Shown here in pieces: positions 2,014-45,117 of a DNA stretch of 64,000 nt. How positions within the stretch are numbered: position 1 is the first letter of the stretch; every line of letters starts with the position of its first letter. Position numbers and translations under genes: made by a program. This DNA is from a bacterium (lineage in GTDB: Bacteria; Bdellovibrionota_C; UBA2361; CALJRW01): contig JANNBC010000016.1 in the NCBI GenBank assembly GCA_031385045.1, forward strand, positions 15,375 through 79,374, written 5' to 3'. Below the pieces are notes generated by a model, which was not told the origin of the DNA, did not search any database, and saw only the letters and a program-made list of their open reading frames with translations.

Positions 2014-3589
2014 CTGCCATTTCTTTTTCGTTAGGTTGGGTGACTTTTTCAGATTTTCTTTTTTGCCTGCTATCTTCAATGTTTTTGTCGGTTTTTTCAT
2101 TTTTTGCTGGGTGTTTATCGTCGTGTTCATCGTAAGAGATTCTTTGATGATAGATACCATTTAATGTTCTAGTAAAACAACGGGCAACTTTATGTAAATC
2201 TCTAAGTGTCAGATCGGTCTCTTCTAACTGCCCACTAGCAAAGATCTTATTAATCATCTTTTGCACATGCATTTGGATTCGGTCAACTGAAAACTCGGTT
2301 AATGTTCGGGAAGAAGATTCAATAACATCAGCTAACATTAAGATTCCTGCCTCTCTAGTTTGAGGTTTTGGGCCTGAGTAGCTGTAAAGACTCTGATCAA
2401 CTTCTGTTGTTTCACCATGCTCTTCAGATTCTTTACAGGCCTTGTTGTAGAAGTATTCAATCATCCCAGTGCCATGATGCTGTTGAATTAAATCAATAAT
2501 TGCTTGTGGTAAGCGATGCTCTTTGGCCATTTCTACACCATCTTTGACGTGAGCTCTAATAATTAGCGAAGACATTGAAGGGCTTAAACGATCGTGACGA
2601 TTCTCATTACCTTTTTGATTTTCTACAAAATAAATTGGTTTTTTTGCTTTGCCGATATCATGAAAATACGCACCAACTCGAGAGAGAACTTTATTTGCTC
2701 CAACTTCATCCGCAGCAGCTTCAACCATCATTCCTACAACCATGGAATGGTTCCAAGTTCCAGGGGCTTGAACACTTAGTTCTTTCAGGAGTGGATGATC
2801 TAATGTGGACATTTCGATTAATCGTAAATCTGTCACATAGCCACCGATATGCTCAAGGAGTGGAGTGAAGGCTGCGGCAATTGCGACGGCTAGTAAACCA
2901 GAAACTAGTGGGGAGAGGATTCTAAAGAATATTTCTGCGGTGGAAATGTAATCCTGATGAATAACTGCGACGATGCTAAAAGGTACCGCAATAATACCAA
3001 TTTTTAGTGCGGCCCGTAAGTATGTGGAGCGAGATCTTAAATCAGATAAGCTTAAGCAAGCGATTAAATTTGTTAACAGAACATAGGGGATAATTAATGG
3101 ATCGTTTGGTAAGTAAAATCCAACGATAATCGAGAAGCAAATTCCAAAAACTAATCCATAGTTTAAACCTTTTACCGCAGCAATTAACAGTCCACCAAAA
3201 GCAAATGGTACGGCAAAGCGTAACGCCTGAGAAGTTACACCAACTAAGCTTGGAAATTTAGAAGCAAAATATTCAGTGAAAGCTAGGGTGGTAATATTCC
3301 CAAACCAAAAAACGAATACGGAAAGAATTAACATCCCATGAATTAGGACCAGATCTTTGTATTGCGGACGAAAACGCACCATGCTTTGAATGGCGTAATA
3401 TTGAATGACAGAAAGCGAGATGAAAATTATTGCGACACGTCCGATAGTGGATTCAATGGAATTGTTTCCAATAAATTTCTGAAAAAGAAATTCTCCAAAA
3501 ACTGTCGTGAGCAAAGTCAGTAACAGCAGGCCTGAATATCTTTTAATTTCTGGATTATCACTAAAAAGATTATTGCTCATGATTCTCAA
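1910..3589 (-). CDS. membrane-bound HD-domain phosphohydrolase (7TM-HD, PgpH/YqfF-like)
   Basis: 559 aa with multiple N-terminal TM helices, followed by HD-domain motifs 'YFHDIGK' and 'QQHHGTGMIEYF'. Conserved position between phoH and ybeY. Carries a K/E-rich ~70-aa C-terminal tail. Confidence 0.85.
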   Translation of the reverse strand: MRIMSNNLFSDNPEIKRYSGLLLLTLLTTVFGEFLFQKFIGNNSIESTIGRVAIIFISLSVIQYYAIQSMVRFRPQYKDLVLIHGMLILSVFVFWFGNITTLAFTEYFASKFPSLVGVTSQALRFAVPFAFGGLLIAAVKGLNYGLVFGICFSIIVGFYLPNDPLIIPYVLLTNLIACLSLSDLRSRSTYLRAALKIGIIAVPFSIVAVIHQDYISTAEIFFRILSPLVSGLLAVAIAAAFTPLLEHIGGYVTDLRLIEMSTLDHPLLKELSVQAPGTWNHSMVVGMMVEAAADEVGANKVLSRVGAYFHDIGKAKKPIYFVENQKGNENRHDRLSPSMSSLIIRAHVKDGVEMAKEHRLPQAIIDLIQQHHGTGMIEYFYNKACKESEEHGETTEVDQSLYSYSGPKPQTREAGILMLADVIESSSRTLTEFSVDRIQMHVQKMINKIFASGQLEETDLTLRDLHKVARCFTRTLNGIYHQRISYDEHDDKHPAKNEKTDKNIEDSRQKRKSEKVTQPNEKEMAGDSSKKAPNNQTEKPGIQENSGENLKRLGLEEYT

Positions 3590-3655
3590 CCTTTTGGATC
3601 ACAAAAGTTCAAACTATTTAATTGCTTAGAAGATGAGTATCCCCAAAAGGGAGAG

Positions 3656-4645
3656 TTAAACATTATAACTATTATAAGCCCTAATAATTTCAGCAACAAG
3701 GCGATGTCTAATCACATCTGTTTCATCAAAATGAATAATTTTCATTCCGGAACAATCTTTTAGCACATGCAACGCCTGCTTTAAACCAGATTCTTCATGG
3801 CGTGGTAAGTCAATTTGAGTAATATCTCCCGTAACCAGGCATTTAGAGCCTTGTCCTAGGCGCGTCAGGAACATTTTCATTTGTCCACAGCTAGTGTTTT
3901 GGGCTTCATCTAAAATAACAACTGCATTACTTAATGTTCTTCCACGCATAAAAGCTAAGGGAGCTACTTCAATTGCGCCCTTCTCAATTAATTCATTTCC
4001 TTGTTCCACGCCAACTAAGTCATAGAGTGCGTCATAGAGTGGACGAAGATAGGGATTCACTTTTTCTGTTAAGTCACCTGGTAAAAATCCAAGTTTTTCA
4101 CCAGCTTCAACTGCTGGTCTTGTTAAGATAATTCTTTTGACTTCCTTATTCAGTAAAGCCGAGACAGCCATGGCCATTGCTAAGTAAGTCTTACCAGTTC
4201 CTGCTGGTCCAATACCAAAGACCAGATCGTACTGTCGCAAAGCTTCTAAATATTGTTTTTGGTTAACAGTCTTTGGAAAAACACTTTTATTGCGGCCATT
4301 AATATGAATTTTATCAGCCATTAACTGTGATAGCTGAGCATTTCGATCGCCAGATAATATTTTAATTGCTCTTTTTAGATCCCCTTCAGAGAAATGTTGA
4401 TCGCTGTCTAGGACACTTGTTAGTTGAGTGAAAAGATCGGTTGCTAAATCTACTGAACTACCTGGTCCCAAGATTGTAATTCCATGTGAAGTACTAGTAA
4501 GTTTAAGATCTAAAAGCTTCTCGGCTGATTTTAAGAGAGCATCTTGATTGGCACTAAGTGTTTTTAAATGATCGTTACTTAAATTAACAAAAGCTTCTTT
4601 TTTTGTTTCACTAATATTTTTAATCGACTTATCTTTATCTGTCAT
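3656..4645 (-). CDS. phoH: PhoH-family ATPase
   Basis: Walker A 'GPAGTGKTYLA' and 'VILDEAQN'. Conserved phoH-HD-ybeY synteny. Confidence 0.9.
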   Translation of the reverse strand: MTDKDKSIKNISETKKEAFVNLSNDHLKTLSANQDALLKSAEKLLDLKLTSTSHGITILGPGSSVDLATDLFTQLTSVLDSDQHFSEGDLKRAIKILSGDRNAQLSQLMADKIHINGRNKSVFPKTVNQKQYLEALRQYDLVFGIGPAGTGKTYLAMAMAVSALLNKEVKRIILTRPAVEAGEKLGFLPGDLTEKVNPYLRPLYDALYDLVGVEQGNELIEKGAIEVAPLAFMRGRTLSNAVVILDEAQNTSCGQMKMFLTRLGQGSKCLVTGDITQIDLPRHEESGLKQALHVLKDCSGMKIIHFDETDVIRHRLVAEIIRAYNSYNV

Positions 4646-9324: not shown

Positions 9325-10707
9325 TTAGGCCAAGTCTTCTTTTATTTTCTCTCTTAGTAGTTTGAGGTAACGTTTAAATTTGGCGTCCTTGGAATCAACT
9401 TTTTGGCTATCAAGTACGGGCAATTCAATTTTCATTGGGTCAACATATTTGCCATCAACATAGAAACTGTAATGTAAGTGTGGACCGCTGGAAAGACCAG
9501 TTGTTCCCACATAGCCAATTACGTCTCCCCGGGCAACTTTAAATCCTTTTTTCACACCTGGAGCAATCTTAGAAAGATGGAGGTAGGCAGTCGAATAGTG
9601 TGGAGAATGTTTTAACTTAATCCAATTACCATTTGCACGATGATAGCTAGCTTCATCAACTTGCGCATCAGCTACTGCTCGCACAGGAGTTCCTGTTGGG
9701 GCTGCAAAATCAACTCCATTGTGTGGACGACTAATTTTTAAAACTGGGTGGAAGCGACTTGTAGTAAAGACTGAGGAAATTCTAGAAAATTTCACGGGAT
9801 ATCTTAAAAAGAAATTACCAATTGCTATACCTTTCTGATCAAAATATTGGTTTTTACCCTGCTCGTTCGGAATATTAATTGCAATATATGCTTTGCCTCT
9901 AGCTGTTACAGATGCCGCCCTAACCTTTCCAGGTGCTAGGATTTTTCCATTATCAAGAGAGCGCTGATCATAAATTACAGTAAATGTATCTCCTGGATGA
10001 ATATCTTTTGTGAAAGCAATTTTACTCCCAAAGATATCTACAATTTCATCAACAATGTCATAGGAGAGTTGATGGCTCTCAGCCGTTGCGGCAATTGAAT
10101 TTTGAATAGCAAAGCTTACTTTTACTTCTTCGACTCTAATTTCGGGGATAATTTGTTCTACTCGGTATTCTAAAAGTTCCGGATCGTAAAGTAATGAAAC
10201 CTTGGCTCCATCGCTGATCGTTTTAGAAAGCCGTGTAAGAACATTGTTTCGAGCTTCTATTTCTATCTTTGAACCTGATCGTAACAGTTGATTGATATTG
10301 AAGTCAGAGTCTTTAAAGGCCTTTTCAGCTTGCAGCGCAAGGCTAGTATCAACGCCAAATTTATTCCAAATTGTTGATAAGGTATCTCCAGGGCTTACAA
10401 TATATTCAACAAAATCAGGTCGATAGATCGATTGGAGGCCGTCAGTATTATACAATTGCTCGCTATCAAGGCTAGCTCGTACTTGATCAAAGTCAATTGG
10501 CAAATCGCTTTCCAGGCTTCCCCAGACGCTTTCAGAAGAAAGTAAGTCTTGATCTTCCAGATCTAGGAACTGATCTTCTTGGATTGCTCTTTGTTCTGTG
10601 CGTGTGCTTTGCTGATTAAGGGAACTAAGGTTATAATAGGCATTTAAGGCTAAGAATCCAAAAACTGAACCTATAATAAAGAAGATGAAACTTTGTCGAA
10701 ACGGCAT
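9325..10707 (-). CDS. M23 family metallopeptidase with an N-terminal membrane anchor and a LysM/OapA-like segment
   Basis: 'HNGVDFAAPTGTPV' and 'GPHLHYSFYVDGKYVDP' (LytM-type zinc site). 'YIVSPGDTLSTIWNKFGV' is LysM-like. Confidence 0.85.
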   Translation of the reverse strand: MPFRQSFIFFIIGSVFGFLALNAYYNLSSLNQQSTRTEQRAIQEDQFLDLEDQDLLSSESVWGSLESDLPIDFDQVRASLDSEQLYNTDGLQSIYRPDFVEYIVSPGDTLSTIWNKFGVDTSLALQAEKAFKDSDFNINQLLRSGSKIEIEARNNVLTRLSKTISDGAKVSLLYDPELLEYRVEQIIPEIRVEEVKVSFAIQNSIAATAESHQLSYDIVDEIVDIFGSKIAFTKDIHPGDTFTVIYDQRSLDNGKILAPGKVRAASVTARGKAYIAINIPNEQGKNQYFDQKGIAIGNFFLRYPVKFSRISSVFTTSRFHPVLKISRPHNGVDFAAPTGTPVRAVADAQVDEASYHRANGNWIKLKHSPHYSTAYLHLSKIAPGVKKGFKVARGDVIGYVGTTGLSSGPHLHYSFYVDGKYVDPMKIELPVLDSQKVDSKDAKFKRYLKLLREKIKEDLA

Positions 10708-39779: not shown

Positions 39780-39795
39780 TTCAGTCCACAACTAT

Positions 39796-39868
39796 TCCCC
39801 GGTAGCTCAGTTGGTAGAGCAGTTGACTGTTAATCAATTGGTCGTAGGTTCGAGTCCTTCCCGGGGAG
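39796..39868 (+). tRNA. tRNA-Asn (anticodon GTT)
   Basis: The cloverleaf folds by hand: acceptor TCCCCGG/CCGGGGA, D arm GCTC-AGTTGGTA-GAGC, anticodon loop CTGTTAA, T loop TTCGAGT. One U-U mismatch in the T stem. CCA is not encoded. Confidence 0.93.
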
Positions 39869-39886
39869 TTTCTTCCTTTTTTATGA

Positions 39887-40237
39887 CTAGAAAAAACTAA
39901 CAGGATTTTGAGAGTCGAAATTATTTGGGAAAAGATTCTTTCTTGATTTAGTAAAATCTTGATTGATTTTTTGTTCTTGGATTGCAAGGACCATCGAAGC
40001 AACCTCAGGCAGCATATTCTTTAGGCTAATCTGATAAGTGGTTTTTAAGCTCTCAATAGCTGTAATAAACTGATGAGTAAAAGATCTGGATATAAAATTA
40101 ATATCTGTAAAATCAATAATAATTTGTTTTTTTGAGTCTGATTGAGAAAGGATTTCTTGAAGGATTAGATCTGTAGTTGTTCTAAGTGCAACCTGACTGG
40201 AATTTAGTAAATTCTTTAAGTAAATTGTTCTTTCCAT
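39887..40237 (-). CDS. DUF4325-like (STAS-like) small protein
   Basis: 116 aa. 'KKQIIIDFTDINFISRSFTHQFITAI' matches the core of STAS-like DUF4325 proteins as recalled from family knowledge, not from a search. Co-oriented with the GHKL ATPase 53 nt upstream. Confidence 0.55.
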   Translation of the reverse strand: MERTIYLKNLLNSSQVALRTTTDLILQEILSQSDSKKQIIIDFTDINFISRSFTHQFITAIESLKTTYQISLKNMLPEVASMVLAIQEQKINQDFTKSRKNLFPNNFDSQNPVSFF

Positions 40238-40290
40238 ATTGTTTATAATACTTCTTCTAAATAAAATTCGCTAGATAAATATATAATGAG

Positions 40291-41178
40291 CTATTTGGAT
40301 ATATATTTTAGTATATCGACTCTCGTTGTTGGGCGCATTAGCCTAGCACTAATTATTGTCCCCTGCCAATTAATCGGTATTGTTCCAAGTTTTGGTTCTA
40401 CTATATTTGAAGAATTATGATAGCAAGCATTCCCGCTAATCAGTGTAAATTCGCCTTGAAGTTCACTCGAGCAGAAAAGATTAATATTCGTCCCAATTCC
40501 GTATCCACGTTCATTTGGTGTTTCTAATTTAGAGGATTTGCCCTCAATCGCTTGACTCAAAGCATCGTAATGACTTGAGGTTCCAATTCCTCGCCGATCG
40601 TAACACCCTTTAAGACCAAGCCCATCGTCTAACAAGCAAATTTCAAGTTCTCCGCGAGTTGGCCAAAATTGACTGAAAATCCAAAAGTTTTCTGCTTCGG
40701 AATGTTGGATAACATTATCGCAAAGTTCAGAAATCAAGTATGAGATTGACCCTCGATAGTTTTCGCTGACTTCTTGATTCCTTTTAAGATATTCAATAAT
40801 GAAATGATCATATTCTGTTGAGATTCTCTCGATCAGGTTGATCCGATTCATTTCTGGTTTAATTAAATTGACATGGCAAATAGGCATTTGATTTTTATTG
40901 TCATCGGCGATTGGAGTTGTTGTACCTTCTGGAAAAAATATTGACGATAAAGAATTAGGAGTATTGAGGGATATATTGCAGTTTTCACTGAGTTTCGTAA
41001 TTTTAGCAGCTATAGGAAGTATGGTAAGAGGGGTTAGATAATGAATTTCTGATAAATCAATATTACTAGCAAACTCTTCCAGTGTTTTGAGATTATTGAC
41101 AAGCTCTTGTATTCTTTGAATGGGGTCTCTTTCTTGGGTTAATGATAGCTTGATCATGTTAGAAAGCTTAAGCGTCAA
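40291..41178 (-). CDS. GHKL-superfamily ATP-binding protein (RsbW/SpoIIAB-like HATPase domain with a ~140-aa unknown N-terminal domain)
   Basis: N-box 'ISELCDNVIQHS', G1 'LLDDGLGL', G2 'ERGYGIGTNI'. Start is either TTG 41178 or ATG 41157. Confidence 0.65.
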   Translation of the reverse strand: MTLKLSNMIKLSLTQERDPIQRIQELVNNLKTLEEFASNIDLSEIHYLTPLTILPIAAKITKLSENCNISLNTPNSLSSIFFPEGTTTPIADDNKNQMPICHVNLIKPEMNRINLIERISTEYDHFIIEYLKRNQEVSENYRGSISYLISELCDNVIQHSEAENFWIFSQFWPTRGELEICLLDDGLGLKGCYDRRGIGTSSHYDALSQAIEGKSSKLETPNERGYGIGTNINLFCSSELQGEFTLISGNACYHNSSNIVEPKLGTIPINWQGTIISARLMRPTTRVDILKYISK

Positions 41179-41232
41179 AATAGGTAAAGTAAAGTGGTTT
41201 TTAGTTGAAATGCTTGTTCTTATTTAGAGCGC

Positions 41233-41270
41233 TAGGTTTCGAAGCTCGACCGCCACGGGGAGTTTCTTTC
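41233..41270 (+). repeat. degenerate direct repeat of the tRNA-Asn 3' end (att-like copy 1)
   Basis: TAGGTTTCGAAGCTCGACCGCCACGGGGAGTTTCTTTC compared with tRNA 39845-39875 TAGGTTCGAGTCCTTCCCGGGGAGTTTCTTCC. They share the exact 13-mer CGGGGAGTTTCTT. Confidence 0.65.
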
Positions 41271-41280
41271 TACCGTCTTT

Positions 41281-41586
41281 TCAGCCAAGCTTTTCATTGA
41301 ATGGCGCACTCACTGAAAAGCCTAGCTTTTTATCTCTTAATGTTGTGTTCTGAATTAGATAATTAATAAAAGTCCTCTTTTCACTTATCTCAGAACTTTC
41401 AAAAATACGCTTAGCTCTTTTTGCTAAAGAAAAGACAGTGTTTGCAGTTAATAAGTAGTCCTGATCAGCCTTAGTAAAGATTTCAATCTCAATGTTTAAT
41501 TTTTGTTGATTAGATTTTAACTGGTACAGTTTTATTTCATAGTCTTCCTTAGCAATGCTCCAGTTTAAGAGTCTATCGTTAGACAC
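41281..41586 (-). pseudogene. C-terminal remnant of a large serine recombinase
   Basis: The 101-aa ORF has the coiled-coil/C-terminal pattern 'LLTANTVFSLAKRAKRIFESSEISEKRTFINYLIQNTTLRDKKL', familiar from large serine recombinases. The catalytic resolvase domain is absent. It lies directly next to att-like copy 1. Confidence 0.5.
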
Positions 41587-41695: not shown

Positions 41696-42850
41696 CTACT
41701 CAGCTACAATTTTGTTTATCAACTTCTTAAGTGCTCTAAGTGCTTTTGACTTAAGTGGAACGAAATTACTTTCGGATCGTTTTGCCGCAAGTGCCGCAGC
41801 ATTAACTGCTTTGACAGCAAGTTCGCTCGAAAGAATTAATTCATCTACAGTTTTATCTGTTCTTAAAGCTAGCTCGCCAGCAAAAGTATCGACATGACTA
41901 TCGGCAAGTTGCGTGGCACTTTTAGCTGCTTTTCCACCTTTGCCTACAGATAGTTTTTTTGTTTTATTAATCGCATCACTGACCAATGCTCGATAATCTG
42001 CTTGGCAATCGGTGAATCCAAAATTTGCGATAGTCGCTTTAACCTCAGAGGTTAAATCCCCAAAAAGATTGGCGGCATTTACTGTTGTCATTGAGCTAAA
42101 AACAGCAGCTCCTGTTGCGGCAAGCTCATTTGTTGAATTCAATTGAACAAATGAAGCGAGGCGCTTAGTTTCACCTGGTGCGAGCTTGAATGTGAATCTT
42201 GTAATAAGATTATCGGAGATTTGTATCGCAAGATCTGTCCTACTAGATAGACAACTTGGCCCTTGAGCGATAAAAGCGACAGCTGGATCACTTGGGGTAG
42301 TTGGATTATCACTTGTTACAATCCAACTATCATTATTAAAAAAACTTGTATCGCCGGAACTGCTGTATCTTTTTGCCGTACTTTCATCAGATCCAAGGTT
42401 GCCATAGATAAAGACTTCTGCAGTTCTAGCTACGGCGGTAGGATTTTCAATCGCAACTAAGAGTCGTGCTGTTGGAGAACCTCCAACGAGGTTACTAAAA
42501 AATAGGTATTGCCCTGTTACATTTAAACCGTCAATTGCTATTTTTTCAGCAGTAATAGCTGTTCCAAATGGGTTACCTTCCACTGAAATGTTAGACTGAT
42601 CTGCAGAACTACTTGGTATGTAGTCAACATTATTAACGGTCACTAAAAAGAACTCATCGAAGGCATCAGAATGACTGGGAATGCTTGCATCGCCAATATT
42701 GAAAGCTGGATTAAAATCAATTGAGGTCCATGTCGCCCCAGCCTCATTAACGGAGTCAACGGGCAATGATATTGGAGTGGCACTAGCAATTGAGCTAATC
42801 ATTAGCACTGCTAATAGACCTTTAATTTTGATAGCGGTTTTAATCTTCAT
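41696..42850 (-). CDS. secreted protein, unknown function (island cargo)
   Basis: 384 aa counted from ATG 42850 (GAGGA upstream). Signal peptide 'LLAVLMISSIASA'. Ala-rich helical C-terminus. No motif recognised. Confidence 0.6.
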   Translation of the reverse strand: MKIKTAIKIKGLLAVLMISSIASATPISLPVDSVNEAGATWTSIDFNPAFNIGDASIPSHSDAFDEFFLVTVNNVDYIPSSSADQSNISVEGNPFGTAITAEKIAIDGLNVTGQYLFFSNLVGGSPTARLLVAIENPTAVARTAEVFIYGNLGSDESTAKRYSSSGDTSFFNNDSWIVTSDNPTTPSDPAVAFIAQGPSCLSSRTDLAIQISDNLITRFTFKLAPGETKRLASFVQLNSTNELAATGAAVFSSMTTVNAANLFGDLTSEVKATIANFGFTDCQADYRALVSDAINKTKKLSVGKGGKAAKSATQLADSHVDTFAGELALRTDKTVDELILSSELAVKAVNAAALAAKRSESNFVPLKSKALRALKKLINKIVAE

Positions 42851-42931
42851 ATTTTCCTCAATTAACATTGATTGACAAAATGGGAATAACTAATCTGACC
42901 TTCGCCACATTTCTGGACAGGAGTCTCTCGG

Positions 42932-44224: not shown

Positions 44225-44403
44225 TTAATCATCTTTTTTGAATATTATTATACAGGGTTATGTAGCTACTCTCCTCTGGTGTGATATGAATTATTTACCG
44301 TAATATTATTAAATGTTGAGTATTTGTATGTGTGAATTTTTAACGTAAATTTTGATAGGCTACTAACTTCTTCCAGATAAGTATTTGCGATAGTCTTTAA
44401 CTC

Positions 44404-44440
44404 TAAGTTTCGAAGCTTGACCGCTAAGGGGAGTTTTTTA
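44404..44440 (+). repeat. att-like copy 3
   Basis: TAAGTTTCGAAGCTTGACCGCTAAGGGGAGTTTTTTA, closely similar to copy 1. Confidence 0.6.
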
Positions 44441-44593
44441 CTACTCAGCATTCTGACAGAGTCCAAGTTCCTATAGTTTTTAAAATATAATAGTAGAATT
44501 GAATTGATGTCTATTGATTGCTTCTTCGCAATAACTCGATAAAGCTACTCAGCCCCATTTTAAATCTTGAGGAATTTAGTTGAAGAAGGTTTA

Positions 44594-45117
44594 TTATTCC
44601 TTTAAGGACTGGAACCCTAATTTTCTTTTTTTAGTTTCAATCGGTTGTTCAAGCTGGGAGATCACAAATCTGATCTCCTGTAATTCCTCGCTATGTTCTG
44701 AGAATCCTTTGGAGACTTTTTGTTCAAGTGCCTGTAACCGTTGTTTCAAATCAGTGTGTTCCTGTGCAACTTCCTTTAGTTTGAAAAAACTCGAACTAAC
44801 ATAATGCTAGCTTGAATTGCGATCTTACTGTTTAGCACATTAGCAGCCATAACTGCTCCATATTCAGTAAAGACTCTTGGAGATTTCCTTCTTCCGCCGT
44901 GGGCATAACTTGAAGTCGCAATTTGCGACTTCAAGTCTGTAACTTCTTGAATATTAAGAGAAAACATAAAGTCAGAGGGGAATCTTTCCAAGTTTCTAGT
45001 AACCTGTTCATTTAGGCGTTTTGTGTTGACACCATAAAGATCCGCCAAGTCGCTATCTAAAATAACCCTTTGACCTTTAATTATAATAATTCTTGATTCA
45101 ATCTCTTTAGTAAGTTT
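44594..45117 (-). pseudogene. ORF6N (KilA-N-like) domain protein, frameshifted and lacking a start codon
   Basis: 'IIIIKGQRVILDSDLADLYGVNTKRLNEQVTRNLERFPSDFMFSL...SQIATS..GGRRKSPRVFTEYGAVMAANVLNS' is the typical ORF6N core. The C-terminal half ('KEVAQEHTDLKQRLQALEQKV...ETKKRKLGF') continues in another frame after the A6 run at 44784-44789. There is no ATG, GTG or TTG after the upstream TAG until the internal TTG at 45048. Confidence 0.7.

Follow-up and report, generated by a model that had tools for sequence, protein, structure and literature searches.

What does a segment of island DNA do for its host when it seems to carry a kinase, a substrate for that kinase and nothing else? The question is raised by a 1.4-kb segment (39887–41270) of a window of 64,000 nucleotides, the whole stretch of DNA analysed here, from contig JANNBC010000016.1 (assembly GCA_031385045.1) of a bacterium of the Bdellovibrionota_C lineage. 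An earlier note, made from the letters alone, had described two co-oriented genes as the sole cargo between a tRNA-Asn gene and a degenerate copy of its end, and a listing of open reading frames (ORFs), ARAGORN and a repeat search all agreed with that layout. Both genes lie on the minus strand: K (40291..41157) encodes a 288-amino-acid (aa) protein with a probable STAS-like domain and a GHKL kinase domain, resembling VapK and CapK, and S (39887..40237) encodes a 116-aa DUF4325/STAS-like protein resembling the kinase substrates VapS and CapS. Judged by sequence, the pair is a distant, effector-less relative of CapK–CapS and VapK–VapS, a stand-alone K–S variant and not a categorically new system. 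The reading that we favour, with modest confidence, is that the segment carries a stand-alone switch of this family, in which a cue-activated kinase would phosphorylate S and thereby switch a partner encoded elsewhere.

K is a GHKL-type kinase that aligns with VapK over both domains

We took the ATG at 41157 as the start of K because homologue alignments and the database gene call (288 aa) begin there; an alternative TTG start at 41178 would give a protein of 295 aa (40291–41178). The C-terminal part of K (aa 126–288; 40294..40782, minus strand) is a Bergerat-fold GHKL kinase domain with the motifs ELCDNVIQHS, DDGLGL and GYGIG, its N-box spanning E144–H152 (40702–40728, minus strand). Residue conservation in K was counted in a 141-member alignment headed by the window protein, in which E144, N148, H152, G179, G218 and G220 were invariant and D177 was present in 140 of the 141 members. 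Window K alone was marginal against Pfam HATPase_c (E 0.06); five of five close relatives matched this family, the best at 7.8e-8. The AlphaFold 2 model of K (predicted local distance difference test (pLDDT) score 91.7) matched the SpoIIAB structures 1l0o, 1til, 1th8 and 1tid with a Foldseek probability of 1.0 and template-modelling scores of 0.61–0.66 (normalized to SpoIIAB), the best match to any solved structure. The invariant motifs, the HATPase_c matches of the relatives and this structural match uphold the earlier assignment of K as a GHKL serine kinase. Sequence searches of the PDB with window K alone or with the K profile returned nothing useful, a viral structure library added a single match, to an unnamed 233-aa protein, and K also matched PHROG 3364, a family of unknown function (E 3.2e-31).

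Comparison with VapK, whose sequence was read off the AlphaFold 3 model deposited by its authors, covered nearly the entire protein. In hhalign, VapK aligned to the 141-member K profile at 98.9% (E 1.5e-17) over 247 columns, VapK 26–285 corresponding to profile positions 20–278; a pairwise BLASTP of window K against VapK was significant only for the region from the N-box to G1 (E 8e-5). A STAS-like identity for the N-terminal domain (aa 1–100; 40858..41157, minus strand) is probable on sequence grounds rather than proven: the S profile aligned to the K profile at K residues 33–91 (80.6%, E 1.3e-5), the order of secondary-structure elements fits STAS, and the weak Foldseek matches of the domain (E 0.8–2) include the STAS proteins MlaB, RsfB, RsbS and SLC26A7. 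The earlier note had offered this domain as a possible effector. It appears instead to be the STAS-like domain that, in CapK and VapK, forms a predicted groove for single-stranded DNA (ssDNA) together with the kinase domain, with the key aromatic residue conserved: VapK F54 aligns to Y40 of window K (41038–41040, minus strand), and an aromatic residue (F, W or Y) fills this column in 135 of the 141 proteins. VapK K181 aligns to R168, a position occupied by Lys or Arg in 92 of 141. K begins directly with the STAS-like domain, and the profile coverage leaves no space for further domains.

S is a DUF4325-type protein with a candidate phospho-acceptor motif

Window S scored just below the Pfam gathering cut-off for DUF4325 (E 1.5e-4; 21.8 bits against 23.0) and also just below that for STAS (E 5.4e-4). 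Four of four S relatives matched DUF4325 (best E 6.3e-6), in line with the STAS-like DUF4325 fold proposed for S in the earlier note. When a 17-sequence S profile was searched against the PDB, VapS (9z7o_A) was the second-best match (E 0.0031), and the anti-sigma antagonist TM1442 was matched at E 0.018. The C-terminal tail of 25–30 aa carries the pattern LFPxxFDxxNPVxFF, which differs from the tails of other S proteins in related loci. A Pfam scan found no helix-turn-helix (HTH) match in the 116-aa protein.

The candidate phospho-acceptor region is the ISRSF motif (I49–F53; 40079..40093, minus strand). The invariant residues of the S alignment (R19, D42, F43, R51, S52 and N74) include one of its two serines; the other, S50, is Ser or Thr in 22 of the 24 distinct S sequences obtained from related loci. 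Two hidden Markov model alignments to VapS differ by one position, placing the VapS motif serine (taken as S48) opposite either S50 or R51, and the serine of TM1442 falls opposite R51.

The pair is related to, and distinct from, the characterized systems

In the work of Chambers et al. (EMBO J 2026; PMC13373217), CapK is an HTH–STAS–GHKL kinase and CapS a STAS repressor with a winged HTH (wHTH) domain; ssDNA activates CapK, CapS is phosphorylated on Ser54 and adjacent immune operons (CBASS, Bub and Thoeris) are de-repressed. In the second system of that study, VapK (STAS–GHKL) phosphorylates VapS (STAS plus a short tail) at Ser48, freeing the PIN toxin VapC; the vapKSC operon protects by about 2 logs against phage Bas42, and VapK F54A abolishes protection. 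The aromatic residue of the predicted ssDNA groove is W68 in CapK and F54 in VapK, and the N-box Asn of CapK is N218 (PMC13373217). Elsewhere, one VapC/PIN group has been described as 'transcriptionally coupled to DUF4325' genes (PMC5499597), which fits the link between S and VapS.

The window pair shares with VapKSC a K protein made of STAS-like and GHKL domains without an HTH, aligned to VapK over both; an S protein of the same size as VapS (116 aa), with a STAS-like core, a short C-terminal tail and a conserved Ser in its motif; and the order K then S. This homology to VapK and VapS supports the kinase–substrate, partner-switch logic that the earlier note had put forward. Unlike vapKSC, the window has no VapC/PIN gene after S: there is no ORF in the gap from the S stop (39887) to the tRNA end (39869), the island ORFs scanned gave no PIN match, and a tRNA gene stands in the place of vapC. 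We thus rejected an assignment as VapKSC. In the related loci, too, no PIN-sized ORF (about 130 aa) was found directly after S, with some of these downstream genes scanned against Pfam.

With CapK–CapS the pair has in common the STAS–GHKL core and the K-then-S order, and relatives of the pair adjoin immune operons and restriction–modification systems. In contrast to CapK, window K lacks an N-terminal HTH, and window S cannot be a CapS-type transcriptional repressor because it has no wHTH DNA-binding domain; instead of an immune operon, a convergent tRNA gene lies downstream of S. An assignment as CapKS was rejected on these three differences. SpoIIAB–SpoIIAA and RsbW–RsbV resemble the pair in their GHKL serine kinase and in a STAS-type substrate that has a serine where helix 2 begins, but the window pair departs from them in the extra STAS-like domain of K, the DUF4325 type of S, the absence of a sigma factor and of a PP2C phosphatase, and a mobile, patchy distribution. 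PADLOC-DB v2 has no dedicated model for K, for S or for the ClpP-like protein described below, and S and the ClpP-like protein matched nothing in it; K proteins matched only N-terminal positions 24–270 of one DISARM DrmA model, PDLC02567, with E values from 1.2e-3 for the window protein to 5e-12 for relatives.

S follows K throughout the family

An exhaustive profile search for K returned 4,673 representatives at E <= 1e-3. At E <= 1e-30 the family numbered 303 representatives, nearly all of 270–310 aa and matched end to end, and when clustered at 50% identity it forms hundreds of groups, in bacteria, archaea and phages. Word-index homologue searches returned four K relatives and no S relatives, and their version with the 141-sequence profile returned ten proteins; related loci were collected with a narrower K alignment, which gave 10 genome loci and 13 metagenome loci. 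Co-occurrence of the two genes, a check named in the earlier note, was strict: an S homologue of 104–123 aa stands directly after K, often overlapping it, in every related locus with enough downstream DNA. The note's statement that no sigma factor or PP2C phosphatase accompanies the pair held for the window segment, and none was found among the Pfam-annotated genes of L001–L003 and L018–L022 or among the scanned neighbours in the remaining loci. In tblastn searches against plasmids, K matched one archaeal megaplasmid and a VapS fragment matched nothing. Scans of viral contigs with the narrower K alignment, with window K or with the K of locus L022 gave no matches; only the K of Bacteroides phage BF1-TP2 gave viral loci.

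Together with loci L001 and L005, the window pair forms a subclade of bare pairs that have no ClpP-like gene. In L001, the closest relative (K 67% and S 52% identity), the pair is equally bare and its context unrelated, with an ion-channel gene on one side and cell-envelope genes on the other, and L005 (50% identity) likewise has no Clp gene upstream. No second copy of K or S and no ClpP-like ORF occurs anywhere in the 64-kb window. The K proteins of this subclade without a ClpP-like neighbour (window K, P0002 from L001 and P0003 from L005), and also P0010, do not have the motif tyrosine at residue 69.

Relatives of the pair occur in further architectures

Next after the window subclade stands a clade of K (29–39% identity) and S proteins that comes with a third gene. 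In 11 loci, a gene of the ClpP family (PF00574, E 1e-16 to 1e-22; 186–210 aa) lies 2–35 bp upstream of K (L002, at 1132–1716; L011, at 9427–9996; L012–L015, L023, L024, L027, L030/L031 and L033). The ClpP-like proteins conserve the nucleophile Ser and the His but not the Asp position. A distinct conserved tail at the C-terminus, ...S(T/V)ANAE-h-h-(S/T)-h, is common to the triad S proteins. Domain architecture and invariant motifs are the same as in the window pair, which differs in having neither the ClpP-like gene nor the triad-type S tail. On the 4193-bp metagenome contig of L031, S lies at 5–334 and Clp–K at 2785–4189, to the contig end; this arrangement could represent a small circular element or a tandem, and no terminal repeat was found on the contig.

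In the Fodinibius/Aliifodinibius loci (L008, L009, L010 and L026), an unknown 206-aa gene lies upstream of K instead of the ClpP-like gene. These loci share a backbone consisting of a tyrosine integrase adjoining tRNA-Arg, small HTH-like genes, and 710-aa and 206-aa proteins, both without a Pfam match. K–S ends this conserved backbone, and the DNA beyond it holds a type IIG restriction–modification enzyme, an HTH-rich block or a block with an 806-aa gene; since this DNA differs between Fodinibius genomes, the pair marks the edge of a variable cargo region. The product of the 806-aa gene looks like a heavy-metal ATPase, judged by eye only.

Phages and proviruses carry bare pairs as well. In Bacteroides phage BF1-TP2, two overlapping genes annotated 'ATP-binding protein' and 'DUF4325' are flanked by an endolysin region on one side and by numerous small genes without a known function on the other. 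K genes 95–100% identical to that of this phage are present in most of the 68 loci that IMG/VR yielded (L006, L036–L100; over 60 contigs of uncultivated viruses, 30–70 kb long). In the Methanothermobacter provirus psiM100 (L007, 4728–7349), the pair is carried by IFa, a 2.8-kb fragment absent from psiM2 in which ORFB is homologous to K and ORFC to S; the remaining ORFD matches the PADLOC candidate PDC-M11A (E 1.7e-119). ORFB and ORFC are annotated as similar to the chromosomal genes MTH315 and MTH316. The Francisella prophage KIRK has a gene for a 293-aa hypothetical protein followed by a 112-aa DUF4325 gene between repressor and integrase, a likeness of size and annotation only.

Sensor-kinase modules also occur fused to defence helicases. 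In P0076 (1266 aa), the K module forms the C-terminal part of a large RecQ/DpdF-like helicase whose best PADLOC model is C3a193 ('possible alternative Cas3', E 2e-163). P0029 (527 aa) was noted together with it. Neither the Clp–K–S triads nor the helicase fusions were found in PADLOC v2 or in the full-text literature searches that were run.

Neighbours were listed for 10 kb around K–S. In a metagenome-assembled genome of the Cyclobacteriaceae (L019/L020), a bare pair shares its element with a relaxase, RadC and HTH_17. An operon that encodes two SMODS cyclases along with an E2-CBASS protein and prokaryotic STING lies some 3 kb away and is followed by a Mu-type transposase. Type IIG restriction–modification enzymes, with or without a PLD–SNF2 helicase, lie near K–S in L008 and L014, and DruE- and DpdE-like helicases in L015. 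tRNA genes are found near the module in L009, L011 and L014, and tRNA-Ser and tRNA-Gln stand at island edges in related loci; in L013, tRNA-Ser lies about 270 bp upstream of the ClpP-like gene, and in L032 two tRNA genes lie about 2.2 kb downstream. Other copies (L001, L016 and L018) sit among ordinary chromosomal genes with no element genes nearby. The defence and tRNA neighbours favour a mobile, conflict-related role. The conflict module suggested in the earlier note is a reasonable description of a family whose members adjoin type IIG enzymes, CBASS, helicases, integrases and phages, but the epithet 'uncharacterised' does not fit a pair with full-length homology to VapK and VapS and to the CapK/CapS family.

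The pair is the cargo of one segment of a tRNA-Asn island

The target of integration is the tRNA-Asn (GTT) gene at 39795..39869 (plus strand; ARAGORN), whose 3' end faces the island. An attL-like sequence formed by this 3' end (39847..39877, plus strand) contains the 13-nt core CGGGGAGTTTCTT at 39862–39874, and the same core recurs exactly at 41256–41268, within a degenerate version, 42 nt long, of the 3' half of the tRNA (41232..41273, plus strand) that is attR-like and closes the 1.4-kb segment; chance would yield 0.04 such matches. A second degenerate copy (44403..44444, plus strand) closes a further island segment of 3.2 kb. All three att-like copies are in direct orientation, and the second and third are 86% identical over 42 nt, yet clearly diverged from the tRNA itself. 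The three copies point to at least two stacked or decayed integrations. Of the stacked segments between att-like copies, two or more in number, the first thus has the K–S pair as its sole cargo. The mobile, tRNA-linked location claimed in the earlier note is borne out by these repeats and the adjoining tRNA gene; in the reading favoured here, the pair reached this tRNA-Asn hotspot by horizontal transfer.

The segment is tightly packed: 18 nt separate the S stop codon from the tRNA end, and about 55–75 nt separate the K start from the repeat. Promoter-like sites were fewer in a promoter and terminator scan than in shuffled sequence, with none ahead of K. The island ORFs scanned, which extend to about 47.8 kb, include no intact integrase. 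The 'recombinase remnants' of the earlier note were not confirmed: the 101-aa ORF at 41281–41586 had no Pfam, NCBIfam or PADLOC match above noise and no phage match in tblastn. The wider island (to about 47.8 kb) consists of ORFs without a Pfam match and a truncated ORF6N domain, a type of domain typical of phage antirepressor/KilAC proteins. The latter is encoded by a 90-aa ORF (44776–45048, minus strand) that matches Pfam ORF6N (E 2.2e-22) over profile positions 17–86 only and is probably a prophage gene fragment in a third island segment. As its main cargo, the second att-bounded segment has a 390-aa ORF (41696–42868, minus strand) with a signal-peptide-like N-terminus and no Pfam match, whose 3' end extends into the DNA upstream of the 101-aa ORF.

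Proposed mechanism and its alternatives

By analogy with CapK and VapK, and starting from the homology, the domain architecture, the conserved catalytic and sensor residues, the strict coupling of K and S and the mobile or defence-linked contexts of relatives, we infer the following sequence of events for the window copy. A stress cue, most likely ssDNA arising from DNA damage or phage infection, would bind the groove between the STAS-like and kinase domains of K and switch the kinase on. Active K would then phosphorylate a serine of the ISRSF motif, S52 or S50, where helix 2 of S begins. Unphosphorylated S is presumed to hold a partner through its STAS face and C-terminal tail, and phosphorylation would release that partner, serving a putative anti-phage role. 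In relatives the partner is encoded in cis: VapKSC has its PIN toxin, and the ClpP-like protease probably plays this part in the Clp–K–S triads. The window encodes no such partner in cis; the output of its pair would therefore come from a protein whose gene lies at another host locus or on a different element, or may have been lost.

Several observations count against this reading. No effector, PIN gene, ClpP-like gene or DNA-binding domain lies in or adjoins the window pair, leaving the output step unsupported. The identity of K to VapK is only about 19%, and the activation of VapK by ssDNA is itself a prediction (PMC13373217). The isolated N-terminal domain of K, modelled at pLDDT 90.8, gave no significant Foldseek match, and window K has S69 where 131 of 141 members carry the Tyr of the YLxxIxFPxG motif. 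Window S alone scores under the Pfam thresholds, and its acceptor serine is ambiguous from the sequence alignments, between the invariant S52 and S50, with the alignments giving S50 or R51. The defence neighbours are anecdotal: the vicinity of relatives to defence genes, a check proposed in the earlier note together with that to tRNAs and integrases, is seen as examples in at least five of about 18 long loci, with no background control.

A more specific version of the switch would make the bare pair complete in itself. Here K and S would form a two-gene immune or addiction switch that acts in trans: triggered by ssDNA or infection stress, K would phosphorylate S, and the released S tail or freed K would target a housekeeping machine of the host, for which host ClpP is a candidate because the sister Clp–K–S triads carry a ClpP-like gene. 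We give this version a low probability.

Slightly less probable, and in our judgement unlikely, is that the pair is a non-functional remnant of a three-gene system such as Clp–K–S or K–S–toxin, its effector and integrase having been lost as the tRNA-Asn island decayed. The 1.4-kb segment, tightly enclosed by att-like sequences and without integrase or effector, has the look of such a remnant; the neighbouring segments contain fragments, including the truncated ORF6N domain, and the next-closest K clade has a ClpP-like gene. Decay is harder to reconcile with two intact ORFs that keep every family-invariant catalytic and motif residue, with an equally bare closest relative (L001) in an unrelated context and a second one (L005) that also lacks the upstream Clp gene, and with the retention of bare pairs at about 100% identity in 60 or more Bacteroides phage contigs.

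The pair might, alternatively, be a self-contained kinase toxin–antitoxin or partner switch in which K is the effector that arrests growth and S a pseudo-substrate or antagonist that occupies it. On phosphorylation or depletion of S, K would bind or phosphorylate a host protein, much as SpoIIAB and RsbW bind a sigma factor. The kinase domain of K is closest in fold to the anti-sigma factor SpoIIAB, two-gene modules without a third gene are common, in phages as elsewhere, and pairs of a large and a small gene in hotspots are typical of addiction modules. We nevertheless regard it as doubtful, a little more so than decay: in the characterized relatives the effector is a third protein or the DNA-binding domain of S, with K acting on S only, and no sigma factor adjoins the pair in any of about 24 loci.

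It is improbable that the pair serves the mobile element itself, as a DNA-damage sensor that times excision or induction or that excludes competitors, with the chromosomal copy a leftover. The pairs in the Bacteroides phage lineage, in the psiM100 fragment that psiM2 lacks and between repressor and integrase of the Francisella prophage would suit such a role, as would the Fodinibius pair at the end of a conserved integrase-bearing backbone. Against it, S has no DNA-binding domain with which to control element genes, many chromosomal copies (among them L001, L016 and L018) have no element genes nearby, and prophage 'moron' positions suit host-protective defence genes equally well.

Least likely, and very improbable, is a housekeeping partner-switching module of the RsbW/RsbV or SpoIIAB/SpoIIAA type for a sigma factor encoded elsewhere: one source annotates K relatives 'anti-sigma regulatory factor (Ser/Thr protein kinase)', among solved structures K matches SpoIIAB best and the S profile weakly matches TM1442, but K has a STAS-like domain absent from RsbW and SpoIIAB, S is a tailed DUF4325-type protein and no canonical RsbV, no sigma factor or PP2C gene is near in the window or the annotated relatives, and the family is spread patchily over bacteria, archaea and phages, in islands.

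Implications for the sensor-pair family

Sensors that link DNA damage to immune outputs through a kinase and a STAS protein entered the literature only in 2026, as CapK/CapS and VapKSC, and the sensor pair now proves far more widespread than these two published architectures. At least three further architectures—bare pairs such as that of the window, triads with a ClpP-like protease and fusions to defence helicases—extend its modularity. If the bare pairs are active, they pose the question of where the output of the switch goes, and the version with a ClpP-like gene provides phosphorylation-gated defence with a candidate effector class that is new and can be tested. Should the window pair indeed act in trans, a core protease or regulator would become an abortive-infection effector, and the Clp–K–S triads would represent an undescribed kinase-gated protease defence.

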